DNA of 64,000 nucleotides from Polaromonas sp. Its GTDB lineage: Bacteria; Pseudomonadota; Gammaproteobacteria; Burkholderiales; Burkholderiaceae_C. The number at the start of each line of letters is the position of its first letter. The stretch's first letter is position 1. Under the pieces are notes generated by a model. That model saw only the letters and a list, made by a program, of their open reading frames with translations. It had not been told where the DNA came from and searched no databases. The stretch lies in the NCBI GenBank assembly GCA_043774625.1, contig JAYVTG010000097.1:29283-93282 (forward strand), written 5' to 3'. The translations under genes and the position numbers were made by a program. Shown here in pieces: positions 7,515 through 62,244 of the stretch.

Positions 7515-7721
7515 ATGAACAAGGCATCACCACCCACCGTCCGTTGCCCACAGTGCAAAGGCCCAACCCTGTTTGCTCCCAGTAACCCTTGGCGGCCTTT
7601 TTGCAGTGAACGCTGCAAAAACCGCGACTTTGGTGCTTGGGCGAGTGAGGAATTTCGCGTGCCCAGCACGCCACCGCCCGACGAGGTGTTTGGCGACGCC
7701 AGCCAGCAAAATATTCATTAA
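7515..7721 (+). CDS. yacG: DNA gyrase inhibitor YacG (zinc ribbon)
   Basis: Matches the YacG family: CPQCKG...[20 protein letters not shown]. Confidence 0.9.
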
Positions 7722-7733
7722 ATTCGCCTGATA

Positions 7734-7774
7734 CCAGCGTGGAATATGCGCGAGCAGCTATTATATTTATAGCG
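7734..7774 (+). repeat. REP-like 42-bp repeat, copy 1 (forward orientation)
   Basis: CCAGCGTGGAATATGCGCGAGCAGCTATTATATTTATAGCG. The same element recurs throughout the window. Confidence 0.9.
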
Positions 7775-7804
7775 TATAGAGTTTGCTTCCCAAGAAAATA
7801 CCCA

Positions 7805-12690: not shown

Positions 12691-13335
12691 ATGAAGTTGA
12701 AATTGATTGCTACGTTTTTAGTAGCTGCCTGCGCAATACCGGTGCTGGCAAACAGCCTAAATACGCTTGAAAACTTCCTCAAAACAACCAAAACGGGTCG
12801 CGCTGAATTTACCCAAACGGTCACCTCGGCTGCGCGAGAAGGTCAAACTGCCAAGGTCAAAAAAAGCAGTGGCGTGTTTGAGTTTGAACGCCCCAGTCGC
12901 TTCAAGTTTTTGTACAAAAAACCGTTTGAACAAAGCTTGGTGGCAGACGGTCAAACCTTGTGGATTCATGATGTGGACTTGAACCAGGTCACATCCAGCA
13001 AGCAAGCCAGCGTATTGTCGTCCACCCCCGCAGCACTAATTGCATCAGCGCCCGACTTGAAAACTTTGCAACAAAGCTTCAGCCTGCAAGCCGAACCTGA
13101 CAAGGACGGCCAGGCCTGGGTGCTGGCTATACCCAAAACCAAAGACGGCACCCTGCAAAGTATTCGCGTAGGCTTCAAAATGCCCAGCGGTGAACTGGTG
13201 GCCTTGGACATTTTGGACAACTTTGGCCAACGCTCTTTGATGCAGTTTCAAAAATTGGAACTCAACCCCGCGCTGGCCGCCGACAGCTTCAACTTCAAGC
13301 CACCAGCGGGTGTGGATGTGATCAAGCAGCCGTAG
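12691..13335 (+). CDS. lolA: Outer-membrane lipoprotein carrier LolA
   Basis: Signal peptide, LolA-like sequence (F.Q....s......G.f...RP.kFr) and the conserved position after ftsK. Confidence 0.9.
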   Translation: MKLKLIATFLVAACAIPVLANSLNTLENFLKTTKTGRAEFTQTVTSAAREGQTAKVKKSSGVFEFERPSRFKFLYKKPFEQSLVADGQTLWIHDVDLNQVTSSKQASVLSSTPAALIASAPDLKTLQQSFSLQAEPDKDGQAWVLAIPKTKDGTLQSIRVGFKMPSGELVALDILDNFGQRSLMQFQKLELNPALAADSFNFKPPAGVDVIKQP

Positions 13336-15332: not shown

Positions 15333-15381
15333 TCCATTTGCAAAGAACGAAGGTCTGCGTTGATTAGAGCAGATTCAAATT

Positions 15382-15440
15382 GCTATATATTTAGTAGCTG
15401 CTCGCGCATATTCTACGCTGGCAATCGGCACTTTTCCCCA
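15382..15440 (-). repeat. REP-like repeat, copy 2 (reverse orientation, with 3' extension)
   Basis: GCTATATATTTAGTAGCTGCTCGCGCATATTCTACGCTGGCAATCGGCACTTTTCCCC. Confidence 0.9.
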
Positions 15441-16100: not shown

Positions 16101-16287
16101 AGTGATCTCCTTGCAGGGTTGGCCCCGTGATGAGGCGCTGTAGTGAATTAGATAGTCTTGCCGATAAACAAAAATTAGTCCAACGCCAACAAGCTTTCTT
16201 ACACTGGTGCGCCTGGTGTATGCAAAAGCCGCGCTATCCAGACAATAATCTGTGCCATAGCCTCAACCCGCGACATTGCATCCACCC

Positions 16288-17589
16288 ATGCCATCCACCC
16301 CCAGCCCCCACACCCCACTAGCTGAACGTCTGCGCCCGCAAACACTGGGCGGGGTGATTGGTCAGCAGCAGTTGCTGGGCGCTGGCATGCCGCTGCGCGT
16401 GGCGTTTGAGTCGGGTGTGCCGCACAGTTGCATTTTGTGGGGGCCACCGGGTGTTGGCAAAACCACCATTGCGCGGCTGATGGCCAACGCTTTCGATGCG
16501 CATTTCATCAGCATCAGCGCTACGCTGGGTGGGGTCAAAGACATTCGCGAGGCCGTGGAGCAGGCGCTGGTGTGGCAGGCGCAAGGCAAGCGCACCATCA
16601 TGTTTGTGGACGAGGTACACCGCTTCAACAAAAGCCAGCAAGACGCGTTTTTGCCGCATGTGGAAAGCGGGCTGTTTACCTTTATTGGTGCGACCACCGA
16701 GAACCCGAGCTTTGAGGTAAATTCTGCCCTGCTCTCGCGCGCAGCCGTGTATGTTTTGCAACCCCTATCGGCAGAAGATTTACAGCAAATAGTGCTCAAA
16801 GCCAGCGCAGAATATGCGCATGCGGCTACTAAAGGTATAGCAATTGAACAAAACGCTGCCGACCGCCTGGTAGCCTATGCAGATGGCGATGCACGCCGGT
16901 TGATCAACACTTTGGAGACTTTATTTGTCTCCGCAGAAAAGGAAAAGCTGGGCAACGTTACCGACGACTGGTTGCTGAAAGTTTTAGGTGAACGCATGCG
17001 CCGCTACGACAAGGGTGGTGAGCAGTTTTACGACACCATCAGCGCGCTGCACAAGTCCGTGCGTGGCTCAGACCCTGACGCATCGCTCTACTGGTTCATC
17101 CGCATGCTGGACGGCGGTGCAGACCCGCGTTACATGGCGCGCCGCCTGGTGCGCATGGCCTGTGAAGACATTGGCCTGGCCGACCCACGCGCCCTGCGCC
17201 TGGCGCTGGACGCCGCCGAAGTGTATGAACGCCTGGGCAGCCCCGAAGGCGAGCTGGCGCTGGCCGAATGCGTCATCTATCTGGCCATGGCACCCAAATC
17301 CAACGCCGTCTACACTGCGTTCAACGAAGCCAAGGCCCTTATCAAAAAAGACGGCACCCGCCCCGTGCCCATGCACCTGCGCAACGCACCCACCAAGCTG
17401 ATGAAAGAGTTGGATTACGGCAAAGGTTACCGCTACGCGCATAACGAAGCAGACGCTTTTGCAGCGGGCGAAACGTATTTGCCCGACGGCATGCAGGCCG
17501 AGTTTTATAGGCCCGTGGAGCGTGGCCTGGAGATCAAGATTGCTGATAAGTTGCGCGAACTGAAAGCACGCAATCATCACAAAAACTGA
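16288..17589 (+). CDS. rarA: Replication-associated recombination protein A (AAA+ ATPase)
   Basis: Walker A GPPGVGKTT, FVDEVHRFNK, and the MgsA C-terminal region (FYDTISALHKSVRGSDPDASLYW). It occupies the conserved position after lolA. Confidence 0.94.
   Translation: MPSTPSPHTPLAERLRPQTLGGVIGQQQLLGAGMPLRVAFESGVPHSCILWGPPGVGKTTIARLMANAFDAHFISISATLGGVKDIREAVEQALVWQAQGKRTIMFVDEVHRFNKSQQDAFLPHVESGLFTFIGATTENPSFEVNSALLSRAAVYVLQPLSAEDLQQIVLKASAEYAHAATKGIAIEQNAADRLVAYADGDARRLINTLETLFVSAEKEKLGNVTDDWLLKVLGERMRRYDKGGEQFYDTISALHKSVRGSDPDASLYWFIRMLDGGADPRYMARRLVRMACEDIGLADPRALRLALDAAEVYERLGSPEGELALAECVIYLAMAPKSNAVYTAFNEAKALIKKDGTRPVPMHLRNAPTKLMKELDYGKGYRYAHNEADAFAAGETYLPDGMQAEFYRPVERGLEIKIADKLRELKARNHHKN
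16802..16843 (+). repeat. REP-like repeat copy inside rarA coding sequence
   Basis: CCAGCGCAGAATATGCGCATGCGGCTACTAAAGGTATAGCAA, about 85% identical to the copy at 54122. It is translated in frame as ASAEYAHAATKGIAI. Confidence 0.85.
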
Positions 17590-22540: not shown

Positions 22541-22556
22541 TAAAAACAGTCCATTG

Positions 22557-22596
22557 CCAGCGTGGAATATGCGCGAGCAGCTATACTATTAATAGC
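22557..22596 (+). repeat. REP-like repeat, copy 3
   Basis: CCAGCGTGGAATATGCGCGAGCAGCTATACTATTAATAGC. Confidence 0.9.
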
Positions 22597-22701
22597 ATTT
22601 ATGAATACCTGCGTGTCGTATGATTGCCCCATGGCATCAAGATCAGGCATGCACACCAACGCGTCGTATATCGCTCTTTTGTGAACCTTGGCATGCATAG
22701 A

Positions 22702-33889: not shown

Positions 33890-33958
33890 GTTCAACCATT
33901 TGGCTGTAGCCAACTGGGGGCAAGCTGCGCAGCTGAGAGATGCCACCGCTTACTTTAT

Positions 33959-33998
33959 GCTATTTATTTAATAGCTGCTCACGCACATTCCACGCTGG
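33959..33998 (-). repeat. REP-like repeat, copy 4 (reverse orientation)
   Basis: GCTATTTATTTAATAGCTGCTCACGCACATTCCACGCTGG, between convergent mrcA and cyaY. Confidence 0.9.
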
Positions 33999-34005
33999 CA
34001 TTCGG

Positions 34006-34338
34006 CTATTTATTGTTTAAAAACACCAATGCAGCGCCTGACTGCTCGCTGGCATGGCGGCTCAAATCCGCAAAGAACTCTGAGCCCTCGCGCGTACTGC
34101 GCCACTCGCCGTCAAACTTGTAGTGGAAACCACCTGCGCGGGTAGCCATCCACACCTCTTGCAGTGGCTTTTGCAGGTTGATGACAATCTGGCTGCGGTT
34201 CACAAAAGTCAGCGTCACCATGCCACCCACGCGCTGGTTGTCGATATCCGCATCCGTCTCGTCGTTCACGCGGTCGCATTGTGCCTCTACAGCCTTGAGC
34301 AAGGCTTCGGCGTGGTTCATGTAGTCAAGATCAGTCAT
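34006..34338 (-). CDS. cyaY: Frataxin-like iron-sulfur cluster protein CyaY
   Basis: [22 protein letters not shown]...[15 protein letters not shown], 110 aa. The ORF track extends it artificially to 34590. Confidence 0.9.
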
Positions 34339-36499: not shown

Positions 36500-38197
36500 G
36501 TGAATACCACCTCCAGCAACCCATCCAATCCACCCAGCCCGGCTATTGTGTCGCAAGAAGCTGTGCGCAGACTGCCGCGCCTGGGATTGGTGCTGCTGTG
36601 CGTGGCTTACGTTCTGGCTGGCTATATCGGGCGTGAGCCTTGGAAGTCTGCCGATATGGCGGCCTTTGGCGTCATGCGCGACATCGCGCTGGGTTACAGC
36701 CAATGGATGATGCCCACACTGGCTGGCATGCCCGCCGATATACCCGCCTTGCTGCCTTACTGGCTGGGCGCGCTAGCCATCAAGGCCGGCCCTGCATGGT
36801 TGCCCATGCATGTCGCTGCACGCATACCCTTTGGCCTGTTACTTGCACTGACCATGCTGGCCACCTGGTATGGCATTTATTACCTGGCGCGTCGACCCGC
36901 AGCCCAACCTGTGCCTTTTGCTTTTGGTGGAGAGGCGCAGCCTACCGACTACGCACGCTGCCTGGCTGATGGCGGCTTGCTGGCCTTGGTGGCCATGCTG
37001 GGGCTGGCACAACTTTCGCACGAAACAACACCAGCCCAGATGCAATTAGCCTGCACCGCGCTACTCTTTTACGCCACTGCGGCCAGCGTTTACCGTCGTG
37101 TAATACCTCTGTTAGCAGCCACACTAGCCACGCTGGGCTTAGCGCTGTCGGGGGCACCCGCCCTGGGCCTGGCACTAGCACTGGTTGCCGCAGCTACGCG
37201 GGCGATGCAAAAGGACGACGACACAGCAATCTATTGGGGCCTGGCCTTGGCATTGTTGAGTATTTTGTCCACCCTGTTGGCCCTTGGCTTTGGGCAATGG
37301 CCAGTGCAATGGGGCAACTGGCCCCAAGACTTTGCTGCCTGGCGCAGTTTGGGTCGCATGTTTTTATGGTTTACCTGGCCCGCATGGCCTTTGGCGCTGA
37401 TAGCAGCGTGGAAGTGGCGCAAGTGGTGGCGCAGCCTGCATATGGCGCTGCCATTGGCAATCGTGCTGCTCATCTTTGTCGTTAGCCTCTTTCGCCCGAA
37501 TGCTGACCGTGAGTTATTACTGGCTTTGCCAACCCTGGCCTGTTTGGCCGCTTTTGCGCTTCCCACCTTGCAACGCAGCGTGGCATCCTTGATCGACTGG
37601 TTTACCCTGCTGTTTTTTTCTTGCTGCGGCCTTGTGATCTGGATAGTGTGGGTGGCCATGCAAACCGGCATGCCAGCCAAACCCGCCGCCAACGTGCAGC
37701 GCCTGGTACCGGGTTTTGCAGATCATTTCTCTTTCACTACATTTTTAATAGCTGCTTGCGCAACATTGGCGTGGGCCTGGCTGGTAAAGTGGCGTGCTGG
37801 CAGGCACCGTGCTGCGCTGTGGAAGAGCCTGGTGTTGCCCGCTGGAGGAGCTGCGCTTTCCTGGATCTTGCTCATGACCTTGTGGATGCCCTTGCTTGAC
37901 TTTGCCCGCAGCTACGCGCCACTGGCGCGGCTGGTGGCACAGCGAGTGGGGCAAGCACATTGTGTACAAATGGTTGGTTTATCAGCGGGTCAAACAGCCG
38001 CTTTCAGCTACCACGCTGCGTTACACCTCAAGCCCATCACACAAGATGCCCAATGCCCATGGCTGATCGTAGACAATGATTCAGCATCCAAAGCTCCCTT
38101 GCTGACCGATATGCGCCAATGGACTCTGCGCGCCACCATGCGCCGCCCCTCTGACGACAACGAAGACGTGCTGCTGTTTGAGCGCAGCGCGCCCTGA
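36500..38197 (+). CDS. Polytopic membrane protein, GT39/ArnT-like glycosyltransferase family (tentative)
   Basis: More than 10 predicted TM helices and an N-terminal GYIGREPWKSADMAAFGV-type region. The start is placed at the GTG just after the rpmE2 terminator. The true start is uncertain. Confidence 0.65.
   Translation: MNTTSSNPSNPPSPAIVSQEAVRRLPRLGLVLLCVAYVLAGYIGREPWKSADMAAFGVMRDIALGYSQWMMPTLAGMPADIPALLPYWLGALAIKAGPAWLPMHVAARIPFGLLLALTMLATWYGIYYLARRPAAQPVPFAFGGEAQPTDYARCLADGGLLALVAMLGLAQLSHETTPAQMQLACTALLFYATAASVYRRVIPLLAATLATLGLALSGAPALGLALALVAAATRAMQKDDDTAIYWGLALALLSILSTLLALGFGQWPVQWGNWPQDFAAWRSLGRMFLWFTWPAWPLALIAAWKWRKWWRSLHMALPLAIVLLIFVVSLFRPNADRELLLALPTLACLAAFALPTLQRSVASLIDWFTLLFFSCCGLVIWIVWVAMQTGMPAKPAANVQRLVPGFADHFSFTTFLIAACATLAWAWLVKWRAGRHRAALWKSLVLPAGGAALSWILLMTLWMPLLDFARSYAPLARLVAQRVGQAHCVQMVGLSAGQTAAFSYHAALHLKPITQDAQCPWLIVDNDSASKAPLLTDMRQWTLRATMRRPSDDNEDVLLFERSAP
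37746..37785 (-). repeat. Degenerate REP-like copy inside the GT39-like CDS
   Basis: TTAATAGCTGCTTGCGCAACATTGGCGTGGGCCTGGCTGG. The first 17 nt match other copies exactly and the rest is diverged. It is translated as LIAACATLAWAWL. Confidence 0.5.
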
Positions 38198-39585: not shown

Positions 39586-40918
39586 CCACCCGCGCCTTGG
39601 GCACGTCAAATGCAAAGATTGACCCTCTGCCCATGACCGACTCCACCCGCAGTTCGCCACCGTGGCGCTGCACCACATGCTTCACAATGGCCAAGCCCAA
39701 CCCTGTGCCGCCCGTCTCGCGTGAGCGGCTGCGGTCAACCCGGTAAAAGCGTTCAGTCAGTCGCGGCACATGCTCGGGTGCAATGCCGGGGCCTGTGTCT
39801 TGCACTACAAATTCTGCACCTCCACCGGGCAAACCGCGCCAACATACGCTGATACGCCCGCCCGCAGGCGTATAGCGCACGGCATTGCTCACCAAGTTGC
39901 CCATGGCGCTAAGCAGCTCGGTGCGGGCACACAGCACGGCAGCTTCGTCTTCCAGCTCGTTGTCAAAGTGCAGGCGTTGCTGCAAGCCGGTGCCTGAGGG
40001 CGACAGCATCTGCGACAGGGCACGTGCCTCTTGCTCGCACTGTGCCAGCAGCGCGTCTACCGACGTAGCTTCGGTCATGCTGGGCTGGGGGCCACCTTCC
40101 AAACGCGACAGGGTAAGCAAGTCACTCACCAGGGTCTGCATGCGCTCTGACTGTTGTCCCATCAGCCCCAAGTAGCGGGTGCGCTGGTCTTCATTCAACG
40201 GCAGGTTTTGCAGTGTCTCAATAAAGCCCGACAACACCGTGAGCGGTGTGCGAATTTCGTGTGACACATTGGCTACAAAGTCGCGGCGCATAGCGTCCGC
40301 TCGCTCTATCGCCGTTACGTCGCGGGTCAATAGTAACTTGCGCCCCTCGCCATAGGGGTGCAATTGCAAAGATACTCGCACTGGGCTTTGGGTATTGCGC
40401 TGACCCGAAGCCCCCGGAGCGGCTATCACTACTTCGTGGTCAAAATTCTCCGTATGCAAATACGCAGAAAAATCTGGATCGCGTACCAGGTTGCCGATTT
40501 GTTGTTCGACATCCCGCTGTGCGTTCAGACCCAGTTGCCTGGCCGCTGTCTGGTTGCACCACTCAATGCGGTTACGTGCATCGAGCAGCAGTACGCCGTT
40601 GGGCGAGGCTTGAATGGCGGCTAAAAAGTCTGTCATGCGTTGTTCGCTGGCAGCTATCTGCTGGTCTTTGCCGCGCTGCAAACGGCGTATGCGTTCTGCC
40701 ACAGCTCCCCACCAACCGGGTAGCGTTGCCAATGCGTTTCCCGCCTGCGCATCGCGCAACGCGGCTTCCAGATGGGCAACCCGCCAGCTATCCCATAGTA
40801 ACCACAGCAGTGCGGCTACCAAACCACCCAGTGCCGCCGTTTCAGCACCAAAAAGGCCGAAATCCAGCGCTGCACCTGCGCAAACAGCTATCAAAAATGT
40901 AGTAACTCTAATCCACAC
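39533..40918 (-). CDS. phoR: Phosphate regulon sensor histidine kinase PhoR
   Basis: TM region, PAS-like region, H-box FVANVSHEIRTPL, and ATPase G-boxes. It lies downstream of phoB. Confidence 0.92.
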   Translation of the reverse strand: MWIRVTTFLIAVCAGAALDFGLFGAETAALGGLVAALLWLLWDSWRVAHLEAALRDAQAGNALATLPGWWGAVAERIRRLQRGKDQQIAASEQRMTDFLAAIQASPNGVLLLDARNRIEWCNQTAARQLGLNAQRDVEQQIGNLVRDPDFSAYLHTENFDHEVVIAAPGASGQRNTQSPVRVSLQLHPYGEGRKLLLTRDVTAIERADAMRRDFVANVSHEIRTPLTVLSGFIETLQNLPLNEDQRTRYLGLMGQQSERMQTLVSDLLTLSRLEGGPQPSMTEATSVDALLAQCEQEARALSQMLSPSGTGLQQRLHFDNELEDEAAVLCARTELLSAMGNLVSNAVRYTPAGGRISVCWRGLPGGGAEFVVQDTGPGIAPEHVPRLTERFYRVDRSRSRETGGTGLGLAIVKHVVQRHGGELRVESVMGRGSIFAFDVPKARVVISAPKKAVAPLESIAG

Positions 40919-45109: not shown

Positions 45110-45134
45110 TTTTTAGTGTACTTTTAGCCAAATG

Positions 45135-45176
45135 CCAGCGTGGAATATGCGCAAGCAGCTATTTATTTAATAGCAA
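45135..45176 (+). repeat. REP-like repeat, copy 5 (overlaps pstS stop)
   Basis: CCAGCGTGGAATATGCGCAAGCAGCTATTTATTTAATAGCAA. The last four pstS codons plus TAA (gtt gct att aaa taa) lie inside it. Confidence 0.9.
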
Positions 45177-46197
45177 CCGATTTTCCGGCAGCATCTTTGA
45201 TCTCGCTCCAGGTTTTCTCAATCGACGCAATCACCGTGCTGGGCATGGGCACGTAGTCCAGCTCTTCGGCCTGCTTGCCGCCGTTGGCATACGCCCAGTT
45301 AAAGAACTTCAGCGCAGCGGTGGCATTGGCTGGTTTGTCCTGCGTCTTTTGCATCAAGATAAACGTCGCGCCACTGATGGGCCATGCGTCTTTGCCAGCC
45401 TGATTCGTCAAAATTTGGTAGAAGCTTTTGTTCCAGTCGGCACCGGCTGCTGCTGCCTTGAAGGTGGTGTCATCAGGTGACACATAAGCACCGGCTGCAT
45501 TTTGCATTTGCGCGTAGTTCATCTTGTTTTGCTTGACGTAGGAGTATTCCACGTAGCCAATCGAGTTGGGTAGGCGGTTTACAAAGGCTGCGACCCCTTC
45601 ATTGCCTTTACCACCAGCGCCTGTGGGCCAATTGACTGCGGTACCCTCCCCTACCTTGGTTTTCCAGTCTGCGCTGACCTTGCTCAGGTAGTTGGTAAAG
45701 ATAAAGCTGGTGCCAGAACCATCGGCACGGCGCACGGGAGCAATGGCCGCATCGGGCAATGGCAATGTAGGGTTCAACGCCTTGATGGCCGGGTCGTTCC
45801 ATTTGGTAATTTTGCCCAGGTAGATGTCGCCCAGCACCTGGCCGTTGAGCTTCATTTGGCCGGGATTGATGCCTTTGATGTTGATGACCGGCACGACACC
45901 CCCAATCACAGTTGGAAACTGCACCAGGTTCTTGGCTTTGAGCTCTTCATCTTTCAAAGGCATGTCGGACGCACCAAAATCAACGGTCTTGGCCTCAATC
46001 TGGCGCAAACCTGCACCTGAACCCACGGACTGGTAATTGATCTTGATACCAGTGGACTTGTTGTACTCGGCCGCCCATTTGGCGTACAGCGGTGCAGGAA
46101 ACGTAGCACCTGCGCCAGTGATGTCTTGGGCTACAGCCGATTGCGCCATCACGGCACCAGCAGCGAGAAAAGCGGTTGCAAAAGCAGTTTTGAACAT
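45163..46197 (-). CDS. pstS: Phosphate-binding protein PstS
   Basis: Signal peptide, GAGATFPAPLYAKW and YQSVGSGAG motifs. Confidence 0.95.
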   Translation of the reverse strand: MFKTAFATAFLAAGAVMAQSAVAQDITGAGATFPAPLYAKWAAEYNKSTGIKINYQSVGSGAGLRQIEAKTVDFGASDMPLKDEELKAKNLVQFPTVIGGVVPVINIKGINPGQMKLNGQVLGDIYLGKITKWNDPAIKALNPTLPLPDAAIAPVRRADGSGTSFIFTNYLSKVSADWKTKVGEGTAVNWPTGAGGKGNEGVAAFVNRLPNSIGYVEYSYVKQNKMNYAQMQNAAGAYVSPDDTTFKAAAAGADWNKSFYQILTNQAGKDAWPISGATFILMQKTQDKPANATAALKFFNWAYANGGKQAEELDYVPMPSTVIASIEKTWSEIKDAAGKSVAIK

Positions 46198-46922: not shown

Positions 46923-46945
46923 TTTTATGAGAAATACCGTCAATA

Positions 46946-46987
46946 CCAGCGTATATCATGCGCAAGCAGCTATGCTATTTATAGCAA
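46946..46987 (+). repeat. REP-like repeat, copy 6
   Basis: CCAGCGTATATCATGCGCAAGCAGCTATGCTATTTATAGCAA. Confidence 0.85.
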
Positions 46988-47207
46988 CAAGAATTATTGA
47001 ACGTACTCGTCAAGTGTGGTTGAACACATCACAGAGGACTACTCCGCCCCAAGGACAAGGTAGTGGGCGGCACTCAGATTTTGCTGCCCAAAGCGTCTTG
47101 ATTCAAGGCGACCGCGTCTTGGGCTAACCCTCTGCAAGTTCAGTCAGACCTGTCGGCTCGGGTGCTATGCTCTGCTCTGTTAAAAACGACATGCACAAAA
47201 CAGGCAT

Positions 47208-53341: not shown

Positions 53342-53839
53342 ATGACTACATCTCTGAACGTCCTGTTTCTGTGTACCCATAACTCGGCCCGCAGTATTCT
53401 GGCCGAGGCACTGCTAAACCATTACGGTAAAGACCGCTTCAAAGGGTTTTCTGCTGGCAGCAGCCCGCGAGACAACCAGCAACCCAACCCGCTGGGCTTG
53501 CAGGTGCTGCGAGATGCAGGCATTTCTACTGAAGGTTTGCGCAGCAAAAGTTGGGACGAGTTTGCCCTGCCCACGGCACCCCACATGGACTTGGTCATCA
53601 CCGTGTGCGACAACGCCGCTGGCGAGGTGTGCCCCTATTGGCCCGGCCAGCCCGCCACCGCGCACTGGGGCTACCCAGACCCCAGCGCAGGCGACGCAAC
53701 TGATAACCAGAAGCTGCTGGCCTTCAAAAATACCCTGCACACCATGCGCAAGCGCATAGAACTGCTCATCAGCTTACCTGCCGACAAGCTGCACAAGCTA
53801 GAACTACAAACTGCTGCCCGTGATTTGTCTGCATCATGA
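53342..53839 (+). CDS. arsC: Arsenate reductase, LMW-PTPase (thioredoxin-coupled) type
   Basis: The N-terminal motif VLFLCTHNSARS and VITVCD...GEVCP. Confidence 0.9.
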   Translation: MTTSLNVLFLCTHNSARSILAEALLNHYGKDRFKGFSAGSSPRDNQQPNPLGLQVLRDAGISTEGLRSKSWDEFALPTAPHMDLVITVCDNAAGEVCPYWPGQPATAHWGYPDPSAGDATDNQKLLAFKNTLHTMRKRIELLISLPADKLHKLELQTAARDLSAS

Positions 53840-54558
53840 GTGCCGTCAATCACCACACACCCCTAGACAAAACCGCAAGTTACAGCCTGACACAACGCGC
53901 CCTGGCCGAATGCCTGGGCACGGCCATGTTGCTGTGCGCCGTCATTGGCTCAGGCATCATGGCTGAACGCTTGAGTGGTGGCAATAACGGCGTCGCACTG
54001 CTGGCCAATACCTTGGCAACGGTGTTTGCATTGTTTGTTTTGATTGAAATTCTGGGGCCGATCAGCGGAGCGCACTTTAACCCGCTGGTTAGCATTATTT
54101 ACCTGCCAAAACAACCTGCAGCCAGCGTAGAATATGCGCAAGCAGCTACTATTTATATAGCAGCGCAATTGGCAGGTGCTGTGTTGGGCGCATGGCTTGC
54201 CAACGCCATGTTTGACTTGCCGGTGCTGCACACCAGTGCCAAGCTGCGTGGCGGCTGGGGGCAGTGGCTGGCAGAAGCCGTGGCCACTGCGGGCTTGATT
54301 TTCGTCATCGCACGTGCGGGTGCAGCGGGGGTGCACGCCAAAGCCAGTGCGCTGGTAGCTTGTTACATTGGCGCGGCCTATTGGTTTACCGCCAGCACGT
54401 CGTTCGCCAACCCCGCTGCCGTGATGGGCCGCATGCTGAGCGACAGTTTTGCAGGTATCGCACCGGCCAGTGCTTGGGGTTTTGTACTGGCGCAATGTGT
54501 GGGTGCCGTGGCGGGGGTGTGGGCATCGAAGGCGTTTGCAGCACCTGCGCGCCAGTGA
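53836..54558 (+). CDS. MIP/aquaporin-family channel (AqpS-like, candidate arsenite channel) carrying an in-frame REP-like copy
   Basis: A six-TM MIP with GAHFNPLVS in place of the first NPA box and FANPAAV as the second. It overlaps the arsC stop. Confidence 0.82.
   Translation: MSAVNHHTPLDKTASYSLTQRALAECLGTAMLLCAVIGSGIMAERLSGGNNGVALLANTLATVFALFVLIEILGPISGAHFNPLVSIIYLPKQPAASVEYAQAATIYIAAQLAGAVLGAWLANAMFDLPVLHTSAKLRGGWGQWLAEAVATAGLIFVIARAGAAGVHAKASALVACYIGAAYWFTASTSFANPAAVMGRMLSDSFAGIAPASAWGFVLAQCVGAVAGVWASKAFAAPARQ
54122..54161 (+). repeat. REP-like repeat copy inside the MIP channel CDS
   Basis: CCAGCGTAGAATATGCGCAAGCAGCTACTATTTATATAGC, translated as ASVEYAQAATIYIA in the same frame as the rarA copy. 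Confidence 0.88.
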
Positions 54559-54948: not shown

Positions 54949-56283
54949 TCAGGCGGTCACAGCATCTACCAAGCGCTGCGCACAGCTTTGGGCTTGCGCG
55001 GCGTTGCGCGCTTCCACCATCACGCGCAACAATGGCTCGGTGCCACTGGCGCGAATGAGCACGCGGCCCGTCTGGCCCAGTTCTTGAGTCACATCCTGCG
55101 TGGTTTTCTCCAGCAGGGCATTGGTTTCCCAGTTTTCCTGGCCAGGCTTTAGGCGCACATTGAGCAGCACCTGCGGGAACAGCGTCAAACCTTCCAGAAG
55201 TTGCGCCATGCTTTTACCGCTGCGTTGTACGGCTTGTAGCACTTGCAGCGCGCTAATCAGGCCATCACCCGTGGTGTGCTTGTCTAGCGCCAGCAGGTGG
55301 CCCGAGCCTTCGCCACCCAGCAGCCAGCCGTGTTTTTCCAGTGCTTCCAGCACGTAGCGGTCGCCCACTTTGGCGCGCACAAACTGCACGCCTTTTTCTT
55401 TCAGGGCCACTTCTACGGCCATATTGGTCATTAACGTGCCCACCGCACCGGGTACTGCTTCGCCGCGCTGCAATCGCTCGGTCACCATCAGGTACAGCAC
55501 TTCGTCGCCGTTGAACAACCGCCCCGTTGCGTCCACCACCTGCAGGCGGTCGGCATCGCCGTCCAGCGCAACGCCGTAGTGGGCGTGGTTGGCTTTGACT
55601 GCAGCCACCAAAGCTGCGGGGTGCGTGGCACCCACGTCTTTGTTGATATTCAAACCGTCTGGTGCACAGCCGATGGAAATGACTTCTGCACCGAGTTCGT
55701 GCAGAGCCTTGGGTGCGATGTGGTAACCCGCGCCGTGAGCCGCATCGACGACAATTTTGAGGCCCTTGAGCGACAGGTCATTGGCAAAAGTGGACTTGGC
55801 AAATTCAATATAACGACCTGCGGCGTCGTCCAGGCGGCGGCTTTTGCCCAATTTGGCGGATTCTGCCCACACGGGCTCTTGCTTTAATGCGGCTTCGACA
55901 GCCTCTTCCCACGCATCCGGCAACTTGGCACCCTGTGCGCTGAAAAACTTAATGCCGTTGTCTTCAAACGGGTTGTGGCTGGCGCTGATGACTACGCCCA
56001 GACTGGCTCTCAAGGCCCGCGTCAGGTAGGCTACGCCGGGTGTGGGCAGGGGGCCAAGCAAGATCACGTCCACACCGGCAGAGTTAAAGCCAGACTCCAG
56101 CGCGGATTCGAGCATATAGCCGCTGATGCGCGTGTCTTTGCCAATCATCACGGTGGGGCGTGCTTCGGTTTTGCGCAGCACGTGGCCCACCGCATGGGCC
56201 AAACGCAGCACAAAGTCTGGGGTGATGGGCGCTACGCCTACGGTGCCGCGAATGCCGTCGGTGCCAAAATATTGTCTTGCCAT
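54949..56283 (-). CDS. glmM: Phosphoglucosamine mutase
   Basis: N-terminal YFGTDGIRG, and the active-site serine loop [16 protein letters not shown]. Confidence 0.96.
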
Positions 56284-56331
56284 GCTCGTTGCCTCCTGTT
56301 TTTTAGAATTAAACGTATTTTACGCCTCTAG

Positions 56332-56371
56332 CCAGCGTAGATTATGCGTGAGTAGCTACTTTTTTCATAGC
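56332..56371 (+). repeat. REP-like repeat, copy 8 (forms the folP 3' end)
   Basis: CCAGCGTAGATTATGCGTGAGTAGCTACTTTTTTCATAGC. The last folP codons (MKKVATHA) and the stop lie inside it. Confidence 0.85.
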
Positions 56372-57226
56372 ATTCCACACCGCCAGTGCCTGCGCAGTTT
56401 CGCGTACATCATGTACCCGCACAATGCTGGCACCGCGTTCTACGGCCAACAACGCTGCGGCCACGCTGGGCAGCATGCGGTCTGCTGCGTCCAGCCCCGT
56501 CACTGCGCCCAAAGAAGACTTGCGCGACCAGCCCGCCAACATGGGGTAACCCAGGCTCAGCAGTTCTGCCTGGCGCGCCAGCAGCGCAAAGTTTTGTTCC
56601 ACACTTTTGCCAAAACCAATACCGGGGTCGATGACGATACGGTTTTTAAACGATTCAGCAGCGTTTTTACCTATCAAATCAGCCTGTTGCCAGCGCGGAA
56701 TATGCGCGAGCAGCTCACAAAAAGATAGCAACTGGTTTTTCACTTCTGCCACGGTATCAGCACCATGCATCGGCTCTACCTGCATGGTCTGCGGGTCACG
56801 GTGCATGTGCATCAGCACCACGCCGCACTGGCCATGCTGCGCTACCACTTGCGCCGCGCCGCTTTGGCGAAAAGCCCAAATATCGTTAATGATGTCTACG
56901 CCCAGGTCCAGCGCGGCCAGCATCACTTCTGGCTTGTAGGTGTCCACCGACACCGGCACGCCCAGCTTGACCGCCGCCCGCACCAGTGGCAACACCCGCG
57001 CCAGTTCGTCAGCCAGCGGCAGCGGCGCAGCCCCGGGGCGTGACGACTCGCCGCCTATGTCCAAAATATGCGCCCCGTCCTTGATCAATTGCTCGCAATG
57101 CGCCAAGGCATCACGCGTGTTGGCATGTAGCCCGCCGTCTGAAAACGAGTCGGGCGTGACGTTGACAATGCCCATGATCTTGGGAGTTGTCAGTTCGATC
57201 TGGAAGCGGGTGGTTTGCCAATGCAT
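56342..57226 (-). CDS. folP: Dihydropteroate synthase
   Basis: MGIVNVTPDSFSDGG, DIGGESSRPGA and DPGIGFGK motifs. The start is taken at MHWQTTRF (57226), while the ORF track extends to 57271. Confidence 0.93.
   Translation of the reverse strand: MHWQTTRFQIELTTPKIMGIVNVTPDSFSDGGLHANTRDALAHCEQLIKDGAHILDIGGESSRPGAAPLPLADELARVLPLVRAAVKLGVPVSVDTYKPEVMLAALDLGVDIINDIWAFRQSGAAQVVAQHGQCGVVLMHMHRDPQTMQVEPMHGADTVAEVKNQLLSFCELLAHIPRWQQADLIGKNAAESFKNRIVIDPGIGFGKSVEQNFALLARQAELLSLGYPMLAGWSRKSSLGAVTGLDAADRMLPSVAAALLAVERGASIVRVHDVRETAQALAVWNAMKKVATHA
56690..56731 (+). repeat. REP-like repeat copy inside folP coding sequence
   Basis: CCAGCGCGGAATATGCGCGAGCAGCTCACAAAAAGATAGCAA, exactly 42 bp. It is read on the minus strand as LLSFCELLAHIPRWQ. 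Confidence 0.88.
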
Positions 57227-57288
57227 TTCTGGATGGTAACAAAGCTTGTTTTCTTGTGGGCGTGTATGCATACGGCTTAATCTTGTAC

Positions 57289-57362
57289 GCAGGGTGAGCG
57301 TATCCTGCAGCCCCTCATGTAGGAGTACCTAAAATCGGGTCAACAGCATACGCTCACCCTGC
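57289..57362. repeat. Palindromic element H1 (15-bp perfect stem, 44-nt loop carrying a conserved 23-mer)
   Basis: GCAGGGTGAGCGTAT...ATACGCTCACCCTGC. The loop contains TCATGTAGGAGTACCTAAAATCG (57315-57337). Confidence 0.85.
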
Positions 57363-57443
57363 TGCGATTGGGGTTGGCGTTCAGACAGTCACGGCCTCGG
57401 GGGTTGTGGATATTTAACCGTTGCTCGCCCACCATTTTTGCTG

Positions 57444-57541
57444 CTTGGTGAGTCTTTGGCGCAGTGTGCGCGGGCTCCGCGATTTATGCGTATGCCGCAT
57501 CATGAGCGGAACCGCGCACACTGCGCCAAAGACTCACCAAG
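57444..57541. repeat. Palindromic element H2 (98 nt; 30-bp perfect stem plus inner stems)
   Basis: CTTGGTGAGTCTTTGGCGCAGTGTGCGCGG...CCGCGCACACTGCGCCAAAGACTCACCAAG, with inner TCCGC/GCGGA and ATGCG/CGCAT pairs. Confidence 0.9.
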
Positions 57542-57545
57542 CCCG

Positions 57546-57577
57546 TGCAAAACGCAAAACGGAGCCGAAGCCCCGTT
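57546..57577 (-). terminator. Rho-independent terminator after ftsH
   Basis: The minus strand reads AACGGGGC-TTCG-GCTCCGTT followed by TTGCGTTTTG. Confidence 0.65.
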
Positions 57578-57598
57578 CTTACAAGAAGTACAAGGGAC

Positions 57599-59527
<1,929 letters not shown>

Positions 59528-59775
59528 TCCAAGGGCATGGTGCCCGATGACTACAAATATGAGGCTATTTTAGGCTTTTCAAGCACTGTTTTGGTGGTTT
59601 GGGCGGTAACTGGGGGTTTTGCAGGGCTATTCGTGGCTTTATGGGCTTTATTTGCTTTGCTGGCATTGGTTTGCTTCGCCGCTCATGCTTGGTCTCTGGC
59701 TGCGGGTGGGTGCCGTGGCTGGGTGGGTCTGCTTCGCCGCTCTACTTTGGCCACTGGCTGCTGATGGGTGCACGT

Positions 59776-59815
59776 CGAGTGTGCTCATGCAGGAGTACCT
59801 GAAATCGCCCACTCG
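59776..59815. repeat. Element H3: 6-bp stem enclosing the same conserved 23-mer as H1
   Basis: CGAGTG-tgc-TCATGCAGGAGTACCTGAAATCG-cc-CACTCG. The downstream TGCATGGGGGGTTGCGCTC resembles TGCGATTGGGGTTGGCGTTC found after H1. Confidence 0.7.
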
Positions 59816-59896
59816 CCATGCCTCCATCCGCGCTGCATGGGGGGTTGCGCTCTGTGGTTTCTGGCCTATCTTTTGTAGTGGTGGTATTGTGGTCAC

Positions 59897-59935
59897 TATG
59901 AAAATAATAGCTGCTTGCGCATATTCTGCGCTGGC
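59897..59935 (-). repeat. REP-like repeat, copy 10 (start of composite unit A)
   Basis: TATGAAAATAATAGCTGCTTGCGCATATTCTGCGCTGG. Confidence 0.88.
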
Positions 59936-60056
59936 AACTGGCATTTTTCTCTAACATCCGCATAAACACAGCGCAACAGACTGCGCACACCGCTCACACT
60001 GCGCTAGCGCATCATGGACTGTACGCACACGCAACTTGCTCAGAAGGCGCGGCGAT

Positions 60057-60154
60057 AGTAACAAAGGCTTGCCGGATTTCACGCTTAATTTATACCTGAT
60101 ACTATTTACAGTGTAGTGGCTAGCAAAGCTAGTGTGCAAGCGGCTTGTCACGCC
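60057..60154 (+). other. attC-like site (long class, R' degenerate GTC)
   Basis: TAGTAAC-aaagg-CTTGCCG ... GCAAG-cggctt-GTCACGC. It is about 80% similar to the site at 62149. Confidence 0.5.
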
Positions 60155-60177
60155 TTTTCAAAGTCAATGCATACATT

Positions 60178-60207
60178 TGAGCACATACGGCACACAACGG
60201 TATAATC
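60178..60207 (+). promoter_or_regulatory. Promoter for brnT-like operon, apparently leaderless
   Basis: TTGAGC, an 18-nt spacer, then TATAAT. The -10 box ends 8 nt before the ATG at 60216, and no SD is present. Confidence 0.45.
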
Positions 60208-60215
60208 CTGTTTAG

Positions 60216-60509
60216 ATGCTTAAAAAACCGATCCGCTGGAGTCCCGAAAAAAATATAGAGCTCATGCAAGAGCGAAGTATTTCGTTTGAAGAGATCCTCT
60301 CCTGCATTGAACAGGGTGGCCTGCTGACTGTTTTAGACCATCCAAATCAGCAAAAGTATCCGGGCCAGAGAATTTGGGTGGTGAAAGTCCGAGGCTACGC
60401 TCACCTGGTTCCGCTGGTCGAGTCAGAAGATGAAATATTCCTTAAAACAATTAAGCCTAGTCGCAAAGCGACGAAGCAGTTTCTAAGCGAGGTTAGCGAT
60501 GAAGAGTGA
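60216..60509 (+). CDS. BrnT-like (DUF497-type) toxin
   Basis: 97 aa, overlapping a downstream RHH/CopG-type antitoxin gene. The N-terminal W..EKN..L...R.ISFEE pattern resembles BrnT. The family assignment is from memory. Confidence 0.6.
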   Translation: MLKKPIRWSPEKNIELMQERSISFEEILSCIEQGGLLTVLDHPNQQKYPGQRIWVVKVRGYAHLVPLVESEDEIFLKTIKPSRKATKQFLSEVSDEE

Positions 60510-60822
60510 TAAAGACTACGAAATGGATATCCTGCGTTCGTTTGAAAAAGGCGAGTGGGAACCCATAAAAAATTTGAAAAAAGAAATGGATCGCTATCGC
60601 GAAGCGGCGGCCGAAACATTGCTGAAGAATAAACGTGTAAACATCCGTATTTCGGCAATTGATCTTGAGGGGCTACAAGCCAGAGCAGCAGCAGAGGGGT
60701 TGCCCTATCAAACATTGATGGCCAGTGTGCTTCATAAATATATTTCGGGTCGTCTTGTGGACGGACCGAAAGGTATAACTAGCCGTCCAAGCCCGTCAAC
60801 GCGAAAGCGCGTTGTGGCTTAA
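60499..60822 (+). CDS. BrnA/CopG-type antitoxin
   Basis: The C-terminal KRVNIRISAIDLEGLQARAAAEGLPYQTLMASVLHKYISG is typical of BrnA-like RHH antitoxins. It overlaps the toxin gene by 11 nt. Confidence 0.7.
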   Translation: MKSDKDYEMDILRSFEKGEWEPIKNLKKEMDRYREAAAETLLKNKRVNIRISAIDLEGLQARAAAEGLPYQTLMASVLHKYISGRLVDGPKGITSRPSPSTRKRVVA

Positions 60823-60830
60823 CTTCGATG

Positions 60831-60872
60831 TTGCTATTAACTTCATAGCTGCTTGCGCATATTCTGCGCTGG
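60831..60872 (-). repeat. REP-like repeat, copy 11 (start of composite unit B)
   Basis: TTGCTATTAACTTCATAGCTGCTTGCGCATATTCTGCGCTGG. Confidence 0.9.
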
Positions 60873-60987
60873 CAATCCCCTGTTTTGCCTCCAAAATCCG
60901 CATACATACAGAGCCACAGACTGCGCACATCGCGCTCGCGCACCATAGGCTGTGGGCACGCGTAGCATGGCGGGTAGGCCTGTGCGC

Positions 60988-61016
60988 TTCGAGTTTTCAA
61001 GGGTTTGGGCTATAGT
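60988..61016 (+). promoter_or_regulatory. Candidate promoter inside composite unit B
   Basis: TTCGAG, a 17-nt spacer, then TATAGT, 32 nt upstream of the ATG at 61048. The same module occurs at 62074-62102. Confidence 0.35.
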
Positions 61017-61047
61017 GCAGGCAACACATTCGTTCGCGCAACTCGAT

Positions 61048-61320
61048 ATGAAAAAGGTATCTACCGAAATGGCTGATCAAGACATTCCTGAATTAAAGCG
61101 CGATCAGCTAGGAAAAGGGGTGCGTGGCAAGTACCTCAAACACTTCAATCAAGGTAGCAACGTCATCGTTTTGCAGCCCGAAATTTTGAAGGTATTTCCG
61201 ACTTCTGAGGCTGTCAATAAGGCTTTAGCAAGCATGCTGGCTTTCGCTCAGGAGACGCAAGGTTTAACAAGTCGCTCAGGTCGCTCAAGTCGGACACCGC
61301 GTAAACGCGCCGCCGTGTAG
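61048..61320 (+). CDS. Small hypothetical protein (antitoxin-like, orphan)
   Basis: 90 aa with DQLGKGVRGKY...VIVLQPEILKVFPTSEAVNKAL and a basic tail. No SD precedes 61048, and an alternative ATG lies at 61069. Confidence 0.5.
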   Translation: MKKVSTEMADQDIPELKRDQLGKGVRGKYLKHFNQGSNVIVLQPEILKVFPTSEAVNKALASMLAFAQETQGLTSRSGRSSRTPRKRAAV

Positions 61321-61362
61321 CTCCAGAGTTGAAACCGTCTCAGTTCAGTGTACGATCTTGCC

Positions 61363-61587
61363 ATGACTCCAACAGCAATCGAACAATCTGTACTCGGCTT
61401 GCCCAAGTCTGAACGCGCGCATTTGCTGCATTTGTTGCTCGATAGCCTCGATGCACCGTCGGAGTCTGATATACAGGAAACCTGGCTGAATGAGGCGCAG
61501 CGCCGCGCGCAGGATATTGACGCAGGCAGAGTCGAACTTGTGAGTGGCGAGCAGCTTGAGCGACAAGTTCAGGCGCTTTTTAAGTGA
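61363..61587 (+). CDS. Addiction-module antitoxin (Unstab_antitox / TIGR02574-like)
   Basis: LGLPKSERAHLLHLLLDSLD....D.QE.WLNEAQRRAQDIDAGRVELV. Its stop overlaps the GTG of the downstream toxin (GTGA). Confidence 0.75.
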   Translation: MTPTAIEQSVLGLPKSERAHLLHLLLDSLDAPSESDIQETWLNEAQRRAQDIDAGRVELVSGEQLERQVQALFK

Positions 61588-61877
61588 TCTATTGGCTCCA
61601 TCCCGAGGCCGCTGAAGAACACAAAAACCAGGTCGCGCACTATGAAGGGCTTCAAGTCGGGCTGGGAAAGCGGTACCACACTGAATTTCAAAATGTCGTG
61701 GCTTGGGTTTGTGCTTCGCCTGATCGCTCACGTATTGTTTTTGCCCCGGATATTCGACGTGCAATGTTTAAGGTTTTTCACTTTGACCTTGTCTACCGCG
61801 AAGTCGATGGCTCAGTCCAAGTGCTGGCCATCGCCCATCATCGTCGCCAGCCAGGGTATTGGATGGCTCGACTTTAA
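61584..61877 (+). CDS. ParE/RelE-family toxin
   Basis: 97 aa, translationally coupled to the antitoxin, with a C-terminal FHFDLVYREVDGSVQVLAIAHHRRQPGYW pattern. Confidence 0.75.
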   Translation: MIYWLHPEAAEEHKNQVAHYEGLQVGLGKRYHTEFQNVVAWVCASPDRSRIVFAPDIRRAMFKVFHFDLVYREVDGSVQVLAIAHHRRQPGYWMARL

Positions 61878-61915
61878 CTGGTTGATCGACCCAACTTTCG
61901 CGGGTCACCGTCAAC

Positions 61916-61957
61916 GTTGCTATTAACTTTATAGCTGCTTGCGCATATTCTGCGCTG
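61916..61957 (-). repeat. REP-like repeat, copy 12 (start of composite unit C)
   Basis: TTGCTATTAACTTTATAGCTGCTTGCGCATATTCTGCGCTGG. Confidence 0.9.
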
Positions 61958-62073
61958 GCAATACGCCTATTTTGCCTCTAAAGTCCGCATACATACTGAG
62001 CAACAGACTACGCACATTGCGTTAGCGCATCATGAACTGTGGGCACGCGTAGCCTAGCGACTAGGCCAGAGCA

Positions 62074-62102
62074 CTTCTAGTTTTCAAGGGTTTGGGCTAT
62101 AG
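62074..62102 (+). promoter_or_regulatory. Candidate promoter inside composite unit C
   Basis: TTCTAG, a 17-nt spacer, then TATAGT. This is homologous to 60988-61016. Confidence 0.3.
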
Positions 62103-62148
62103 TACAGGCAACAAATTCGTTCGCGCAACTGGCTCAGAAGGCCCGGCG

Positions 62149-62244
62149 ACAGTAACCAAGGCTTGCCGGGTTTCATGCTTTATTTATACCTGATATTATT
62201 CATAGTGCATCGCTGCAAAACCAGTGTGCAAGAGGGTTGTTACG
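62149..62244 (+). other. attC-like site (long class)
   Basis: CAGTAAC-caagg-CTTGCCG ... GCAAG-agggtt-GTTACGT, with an imperfect extended stem (CGGGTTTCATGC / GCATCGCTGCAAAACC). Confidence 0.55.

Follow-up and report, generated by a model that had tools for sequence, protein, structure and literature searches.

A 64,000-nucleotide stretch of a Polaromonas sp. genome (hereafter, the window) carries an intact folP gene, encoding dihydropteroate synthase (DHPS), and part of this gene resembles a short repeat that is dispersed through the surrounding DNA. The locus raises the question of how a repeat came to be translated within a conserved enzyme gene: as an exact insertion, as held by the original prediction for this locus, or by some other route. 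The best explanation, in which we place about even confidence, is that the folP stretch is a long-resident, translated copy of an interspersed element similar to repetitive extragenic palindromic (REP) sequences, which has become part of folP and of its predicted protein.

The folP product (gene at 56342-57226, minus strand; intact open reading frame (ORF) of 294 amino acids) is a dihydropteroate synthase of the Pterin_bind TIM barrel family. It matches Pfam PF00809 (Pterin_bind) over positions 1-244 of the 244-position model (E = 9e-68, 228.9 bits), and its best match among solved structures is Burkholderia cenocepacia DHPS (PDB 2Y5J, E = 1.5e-76). The catalytic motifs DxGxES, DPGxGFxK, SRK and RVHDV are all intact in a protein alignment (A1), and the AlphaFold model has a mean predicted local distance difference test (pLDDT) score of 87.5 and a predicted template modelling (pTM) score of 0.89.

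A profile of the repeat family was built from 13 copies, leaving the folP copy out, and was run over the window with nhmmer. Fourteen copies scored above 40 bits and four more were weaker, confirming that the proposed repeat family is real; copies were also found in relatives L081-L085, L001, L002 and others. Repeat finding and hand alignment gave the consensus, in the folP sense, as TTGCTAT-N7-ATAGCTGCTTGCGCA-TATTC-YRCGCTGGCAA-..GGC...TTT..C....AA, with the core ATAGCTGCTTGCGCA...GCGCTGGCA. The folP copy was recovered at 56675-56733 (59 nt) with E = 1e-12 and 43.7 bits. It agrees with the consensus at 41 of 52 defined positions (34-49 in the other copies), 30 of 38 within the 42 nt that had been flagged originally (56690-56731, minus strand) and 11 of 13 further 3′. 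The candidate element-derived stretch, delimited by the profile match and the consensus positions, covers 56663-56733 on the minus strand (read as TTGCTATCTTTTTGTGAGCTGCTCGCGCATATTCCGCGCTGGCAACAGGCTGATTTGATAGGTAAAAAC), and about 69 nt of it, 56663-56731, are element-like and encode LLSFCELLAHIPRWQQADLIGKN. The flagged 42 nt lie inside folP as predicted and encode residues 166-179, LLSFCELLAHIPRW, in the minus-strand frame; the fifteenth letter of the translation first given for them, Q, belongs to the next codon. Placement of this segment between AEV and DPGIGFGK was borne out in the FolP sequence. The idea of an exact 42-bp element was not: the exact 42-mer occurs only once in the window and similarity spans 59-69 nt.

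In the AlphaFold model LLSFCELLA (residues 166-174) forms the C-terminal end of a helix at 158-174, and the strand IVID (197-200) leads into DPGIGFGK. Between helix and strand, residues 175-194 are modelled as two short helices of low pLDDT (56-68 over residues 171-190), in a segment that no solved structure contains; residues 175-179, the last part of the flagged segment, fall in this low-confidence excursion.

The folP region was compared with relatives, many of which are metagenome-assembled genomes (MAGs). With 6-20 kb of sequence used per relative, few copies underlie the family consensus of any one genome. The motif LLSF[CY]E.L is present in all of the 33 closest FolP proteins (69-82% identity), where L166, L167 and F169 are invariant, and downstream of it both sequence and length vary. 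Most Comamonadaceae reference loci have a normal-length form, 25 residues long from D.V up to the R preceding IVLDPG and equal in this to B. cenocepacia (for example DVVPQVLSFLELSAQALQALGVDKA, and DVVAAVREFLEAQAGALMTRGVQAE in Variovorax); it was found in Acidovorax, Variovorax, Hydrogenophaga, Polaromonas sp. C04 and a Rhodoferax MAG. In the long form the same interval holds 32, 39 or 40 residues; this form is present in the window, L085, L081/82, L083/84, L001, L002 (Variovorax sp. PCZ-1), L012, L019, L009, L021 and L005. When the region is left out of the tree, the long-form proteins form a single clade, and the strict element pattern is confined to loci of that clade. All long-form folP genes are element-like in their DNA over about 66 nt. 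The long form is shared by 11 sampled sequences from independent assemblies, isolates included, and by all 33 of the closest database proteins, with FolP identity down to about 65%. The folP feature is thus old, not recent, with a single Comamonadaceae clade carrying the long form, and an assembly error at this site, which had been named as a possible refutation, is unlikely because the long form recurs in independent assemblies.

Alignment to 2Y5J gave exactly 14 extra residues between the conserved V..V and DPG, as had been noted. The excess is composite, however, consisting of seven codons common to the whole clade and seven further codons (GKNAAES, residues 186-192; 56651-56671, minus strand) found only in the sub-lineage of the window, L085, L081 and L083, and it lies mostly 3′ of the 42 nt. 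The agreement of 14 × 3 with 42 is therefore coincidental. The GKNAAES positions (codon-alignment columns 190-196) are gaps in L001, L002, L012 and L019, and part of the other sub-clade gained eight codons independently at the same spot. In L021 folP the eight extra codons, within 3483-3633, contain AAAATAGCATCT, which resembles the start of a second copy of the element; the later expansions of folP may be partial tandem additions of this kind.

The original prediction would have been refuted by repeat-free orthologues carrying a homologous segment, and such orthologues were found for part of it: VLSFLE..AQ of the normal-length forms, which lack the repeat, aligns with LLSFCELLA, whose residues are therefore not foreign to FolP. 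The new material in long folP consists of four codons directly 5′ of the CTA-T.. block and of the part from about residue 175 onward. In the nearest normal-length outgroups, L004 and L006, the native folP DNA reads GTGCTATCGTTTCTGGAGCG, similar to the first hairpin of the element. Plain additive insertion of 59-69 nt does not agree with these alignments; replacement at an already element-like site agrees better. As a separate matter, some close FolP relatives (P0002, P0004, P0007 and P0019; alignment A1 columns 179-197) carry, in the loop that precedes the helix, a His/Gly/Asp-rich insert of 9-24 residues (for example QDHSGHGGHDGYGSHDGHDEVGD) that is missing from the window protein.

The region is conserved at the nucleotide level beyond what its protein sequence requires. 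Among the 11 long-form folP genes, pairs sharing the same residue use the identical codon in 72.5% of cases in the region vs 47.4% elsewhere. This value was reached in none of 20,000 random column sets, and every one of the best sliding windows overlaps the region. Of the 121 columns that are fully conserved, only 5 use one and the same codon throughout, and three of these (CTA, TTT and GAG) fall within a span of five codons in the region; CTA is used in 11 of 11 long-form sequences and for 7% of leucine codons elsewhere. Amino-acid conservation is lower in the region, 0.51 vs 0.77 elsewhere. The normal-length VLxFL group likewise uses CTA in 13 of 13 and TTT in 13 of 13 sequences, with codon identity of 0.64 in the region vs 0.52 (p ~0.007).

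Normal-length folP genes of the Acidovorax type carry a perfect stem, GCGCTTG-N5-CAAGCGC, at the site, with variable loops. A probe for an Acidovorax-type repeat matched Comamonadaceae plasmids (for example Diaphorobacter, TTTGCTATTATTTTGATAGCTGTTAGCGCTTATCCATCAAGCGCTAGAGGCCAATTTTG), confirming that such a family exists. When a profile of four plasmid copies was run against 636 kb, its top match fell in an Acidovorax MAG, at the helix region of folP (E = 1.3e-4), and the next matches were the same folP site in five more Acidovorax-type genes. The window-type profile matched folP of the window, L085, L081, L012 and L019 and normal-length 'ELQAHNL' forms from metagenomes, and no Acidovorax-type folP. 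Within the long-form clade, the window and L085 read CCGCGCTGG, which is the family consensus, and L081, L083, L002 and L009 read CCATATGGG, with five adjacent differences. By these reciprocal profile searches each lineage has its own variant in folP. The patterns suggest that the folP copy and the family exchange sequence, or that selection acts on the two in common. A search of plasmids with the Acidovorax folP segment gave no match, and a concatenated-peptide query found no other protein with the element-encoded peptide. Scanning metagenomes for closer relatives yielded no locus above 70% identity; the loci obtained served for normal-length forms and not for fine mapping of conversion tracts.

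Two further replicons carry variants of the repeat. A Rhodoferax antarcticus plasmid (L088, NZ_CP019241; a cultured species) has five window-like copies in 26.5 kb, intermediate in form between the window and Acidovorax types (...GCGCATATTCCACGGGGGCTACAGCC...). A Comamonas odontotermitis replicon (L090, NZ_CP083452), typed as a plasmid yet carrying a ribosomal protein operon, has a variant that is a near-perfect long palindrome, ATAGCTGCCAGCGC-N-GCGCTGGCAGCTAT. This palindrome may be the archetype of the superfamily.

The same element was found in the same frame in a second gene. In rlmE of L083, L002, L021, L012 and L005 a full 68-nt element lies in the folP frame (LLSK[IV]E..A[HQ]IPS.., for example LLSKIELLAHIPSGLQADLPDK). 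RlmE proteins with the element have 243-247 residues vs 217-220 in genomes with normal-length folP, a net gain of 19-23, and the phyletic pattern matches that of long folP. The native site in the outgroup reads GTGCTACAAAAACTGGAGCA, and element carriers have four codons added 5′ of that block. The window contains no rlmE, including next to ftsH, where relatives have it.

A second family copy lies 358 bp downstream of the first, in the same orientation (56316-56374, minus strand, 50.8 bits). The folP gene is flanked by ftsH (57599-59527) on one side and by the phosphoglucosamine mutase gene glmM (54949-56283, minus strand; orthologues annotated PGM_PMM I-IV) on the other, downstream. The folP stop codon (56342-56344) falls within the downstream copy, which encodes the FolP tail AMKKVATHA, its remainder filling part of the folP-glmM spacer. 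Copies at or after the folP stop were also found, in the same orientation, in L001, L002, L005, L009, L012, L018, L021, L083 and L085 (encoding the tails AMKKVAVSAIPTPATG in L085 and AMNSVAACAISA in L083); among long-form genomes L019 and L081 have none. In normal-length outgroups the spacer measures -4 to 16 nt or holds unrelated sequence. An exchange test between the internal and the downstream folP copy gave 39.9 vs 35.9 matches of 66 (p = 0.0004 overall).

The folP stretch is homologous to the repeat family, lies in frame in an intact gene, belongs to a single Comamonadaceae clade, is conserved at synonymous sites and has a counterpart in the same frame in rlmE of the clade. On the explanation that we prefer, a long-resident copy, element DNA would have entered folP by a replacement-type event in the clade ancestor, at a site whose native sequence was already similar to the 5′ end of the element (GTGCTAT-N5-CTGGAGC). 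The incoming DNA would have replaced the last codons of the helix and the connection from helix to strand, with a net gain of seven codons in the clade ancestor and of seven more later in the sub-lineage of the window. With its first nine codons the copy would restore the end of the helix that precedes the DPG strand. In a TIM barrel the helix-to-strand side lies opposite the active site, and residues ~175-194 are modelled as a loose excursion on that face, which would explain why the enzyme tolerates them. Likeness to the element would have been kept by selection at the nucleotide level, by gene conversion from other copies, or by both.

Several observations weigh against this explanation. 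The net gain (+7, then +14) is far below 59-69 nt, so that there was no simple additive insertion, and in the 5′ half the residues LSF.E..AQ match normal-length orthologues; this half may be native and not element DNA. Normal-length folP of Acidovorax and others is also element-like at the site, which makes a single insertion in the clade ancestor insufficient. No closely related pair of empty and filled sites was found among the relatives. The exchange test is weak and confounded by shared ancestry, with only about three extra matches within clade A. Taken together, the synonymous conservation and the Acidovorax folP genes with their own variant point to constraint at the DNA level or gene conversion, not to a one-off insertion.

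A wider proposal, which we advance tentatively and with less than even confidence, is that across Comamonadaceae one fixed folP site, the helix preceding the DPG strand, shows concerted evolution with a REP-like family spread through the genome. Each lineage (the window clade, the Acidovorax type and the 'ELQAHNL' group) would carry its own variant there, with or without a change in length and with synonymous sites constrained. If this is true, either conversion, targeted or guided by homology, lets a selfish repeat family rewrite an essential coding sequence again and again, or selection has long maintained a REP-like signal within a gene.

The latter possibility, taken without any mobile event, is the main rival, and we regard it as unlikely. 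The folP stretch would be a selected nucleic-acid signal in the coding sequence, a REP-like hairpin or a protein-binding site, possibly with a role in the differential decay or processing of mRNA in the rlmE-ftsH-folP-glmM cluster, and reused intergenically; selection would keep the similarity while the partner factor drifts in each lineage. The excess synonymous conservation, seen in long and normal-length forms alike, agrees with this, as do the perfect 7-bp stem of Acidovorax-type folP, built with the rare codons CTT and CAA around variable loops, the copy kept in the folP-glmM spacer across genera, and the location of related motifs elsewhere mostly within 50 bp of gene ends (PMC5217627). 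Predicted folding is weak, however: single copies mostly fold no better than shuffled sequences (z-scores mostly 0 to -1), and for 19 copies drawn from both clades RNAalifold gave no consensus structure. Coding copies have the first hairpin disrupted (TAG to GAG), the orientation of copies relative to genes is inconsistent in the window, and a promoter and terminator scan of 56200-57600 found nothing above shuffle expectation. In rlmE the near-additive copy, and in folP the 3′ part of the copy, moreover resemble imported DNA.

The reverse direction of descent, in which the helix-coding segment of folP or the copy at its 3′ end was the progenitor or master of the dispersed copies, is very improbable. 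It would account for the presence of each lineage's own variant in folP, and the native codons for A-Q...A-L-G (GCGCAG...GCGCTGG) do resemble the second hairpin of the element. The dispersed copies, however, all share palindromic features that are missing in folP (ATAGC vs GAGC in folP), the Comamonas palindrome is likewise absent from folP, and amplification of a gene-internal fragment has no known mechanism. Still less weight can be given to the recent, exact, additive 42-bp insertion that adds precisely LLSFCELLAHIPRW. FolP is indeed 14 residues longer here than B. cenocepacia DHPS, and the 42 nt fit the family well, but similarity extends beyond them, LLSFCELL is invariant or nearly so in 33 of 33 closest FolPs and aligns with VLSFLE of normal-length forms, the excess is split 7 + 7, largely 3′, and the segment is common to relatives at 65-80% identity; the orthologue alignments refute this reading and it was rejected. 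Chance resemblance or an assembly artefact, for which nothing speaks beyond the short length of the element, has a negligible probability given E = 1e-12 and the same segment in at least 11 independent assemblies, isolates included.

[quoted passage not shown] The likeness is apt as a description: both are short, interspersed, multi-copy repeats of which a sizeable share lie in frame in conserved housekeeping genes, where they are translated and tolerated. The window holds such a family, and by sequence its members lie in frame in intact conserved genes in folP, rarA, the aquaporin gene, lolA and rlmE of relatives. The likeness fails in the lack of a clean indel of element length. RPEs are ~150 bp long and add their full length to the protein; the window element is ~60-70 nt, and its net gain in folP (+7/+14 residues), rarA (+2 to +5) and the aquaporin gene is far below its size, rlmE alone being near-additive (+19-23 residues for 68 nt). 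Also unlike RPEs, the element is read in three frames, is conserved at synonymous sites and has lineage-specific variants in folP, and its host is a free-living betaproteobacterium, not Rickettsia. No sequence relationship to RPEs was seen. Rfam gave no repeat match at gathering thresholds over the whole window or at permissive thresholds around folP; the only local match was a spurious sub-threshold microRNA on an inverted repeat at 57443-57542. That inverted repeat, in the ftsH-folP interval, has perfect 31-nt arms and a 38-nt loop and is unrelated to the family, as is an imperfect 35-nt palindrome at 57289-57362.

Like REPs, the family has copies in the hundreds, mostly near gene ends, and in Comamonas its variant is a near-perfect long palindrome. 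The consensus contains a 25-nt imperfect palindrome (TGCTTGCGCA-TATTC-TGCGCTGGCA) after [A/G]TAGC, but the hairpins predicted for it are weak, and no consensus structure emerged across lineages. REPs are extragenic by definition and are mobilised by REP-associated tyrosine transposases (RAYTs). Here 5 of the 14 strong copies overlap genes, no close inverted pairs (the doublets known as REPINs) occur within the window, and no RAYT gene was found in its 64 kb.

Related motifs have been listed before, as uncharacterised 'potential novel motifs', mostly intergenic and mostly <50 bp from gene ends. In P. naphthalenivorans CJ2 the motif is ATAGCT(N)22CAAAAG, with 125 copies of which 18 lie within genes; in Acidovorax ebreus TPSY it is GCTTAT(N)5AAGCG, with 114 copies, 5 of them within genes (PMC5217627). 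The ATAGCT core and the GCGCTT..AAGCGC hairpin recur in the variants seen here, and from this common core we infer that the motifs belong to the same family. They were reported as statistical motif pairs, without element boundaries, a family description or an analysis of in-gene copies. The BRE repeats of Bordetella and Comamonadaceae are also betaproteobacterial, and some copies are reported to lie wholly within coding sequences (PMC3110155). They are ~90 bp long, have 69% G+C, are often in tandem (TTTGCCGCGGGCCGCCCAAGGCAAAAAAGCCCCCTCGGGGGGCAGCAAGC...), and the published BRE sequences are unrelated to the window element, which ruled this identity out (PMC3110155). MITEs such as ERIC, BOX and those of Anabaena are small non-autonomous repeats that can form in-frame fusions with host genes (PMC10969869). 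The ends of the window consensus are not complementary and no clear target-site duplication was seen; a GCTAT-like motif near the 3′ end recurs inconsistently, in some copies.

A Comamonadaceae-type repeat, ATAGCTGCTTGCGCTTGCTACGCAAGCGCTAGAGGCC, is also contained in the integron cassette orfF/gcuF, as seen in an Escherichia coli plasmid (L086, NZ_MZ513635, 2357-2647). The cassette (array dfrA12-orfF-aadA2, class 1 integron) is annotated as DUF1010, matches PF06231 at 98 bits and occurs in >1,700 plasmid records, which hints that the cassette, and perhaps the Pfam family too, may derive from such a betaproteobacterial repeat. Membership of the window copies in DUF1010 was rejected: seven translations across them gave no match to PF06231, and the relation is at the DNA level only, through the shared core ATAGCTGCTTGCGC.

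The small repeats of bacteria are as a rule regarded as intergenic, with Rickettsia as the textbook exception in which they are translated within genes. The present locus would add a free-living betaproteobacterial lineage with in-gene repeats in folP, rlmE, rarA, an aquaporin gene and the lolA signal peptide. It is unusual in that the gain is far below the length of the element, the folP copy persists across genera with constrained synonymous sites, and folP tracks the variant of its lineage. If upheld, folP would be a tractable case for sequence exchange between a repeat family and an essential gene, or for REP-like signals inside coding sequences. In practice such repeats produce spurious ORF calls and mis-scored indels, and one repeat variant travels in the orfF cassette on many resistance plasmids.

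The remaining copies in the window are as follows. Gene-borne copies use three reading frames, LLS..ELLAHIP, IAACAYSALA and ASAEYAQAAT. At the 5′ end of lolA (gene 12691-13335) a plus-strand copy (12705-12763, 43.4 bits) encodes, in a second frame, the signal peptide MKLKLIATFLVAACAIPVLANS ahead of the Pfam LolA domain at residues 32-203; a copy in L083 likewise encodes the N-terminus, MNATKFIAACAINTMASAVLL, of a DUF4124 protein. Two copies lie antisense in plus-strand genes and share one frame (ASAEYAHAAT / ASVEYAQAAT), with a net length change of only 2-5 residues. The copy in rarA/mgsA (gene 16276-17589, assigned with Pfam) is at 16785-16845, minus strand (53.0 bits), and encodes LKASAEYAHAATKGIAI, a segment that is common to RarA proteins at 84-91% identity and different in others. 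The other, in the aquaporin (MIP) gene (53836-54558), is at 54105-54164, minus strand (56.1 bits), and encodes PAASVEYAQAATIYIAAQ right after the NPx motif; orthologous copies are present in the MIP genes of L081 and L083. Intergenic copies were found at 7719-7775 (minus, 58.6 bits), 15379-15438 (plus, 64.7 bits), 22542-22599 (minus, 59.0 bits), 33957-34012 (plus, 55.6 bits) and 46929-46988 (minus, 47.9 bits). Another copy (45119-45178, minus, 61.1 bits) runs over the stop of a PstS-like gene (45163-46197) and ends just before the start of the next gene. Weak matches (22-24 bits) fall in ftsK (10700-10748), in a gene for a 599-residue protein (37736-37771) and in phoR (40850-40907), all in transmembrane segments and in the frame ..IA.CA...; these may represent ancient, decayed copies or resemblances that hydrophobic codons produced by chance. 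Finally, the region upstream of ftsH (59600-62200) consists of repeated units ~1,087 bp apart with one plus-strand family copy each, at 59892-59951 (60.0 bits), 60830-60888 (56.9 bits) and 61916-61975 (60.3 bits), and among these units lie small ORFs resembling toxin-antitoxin pairs (for example 60216-60822).

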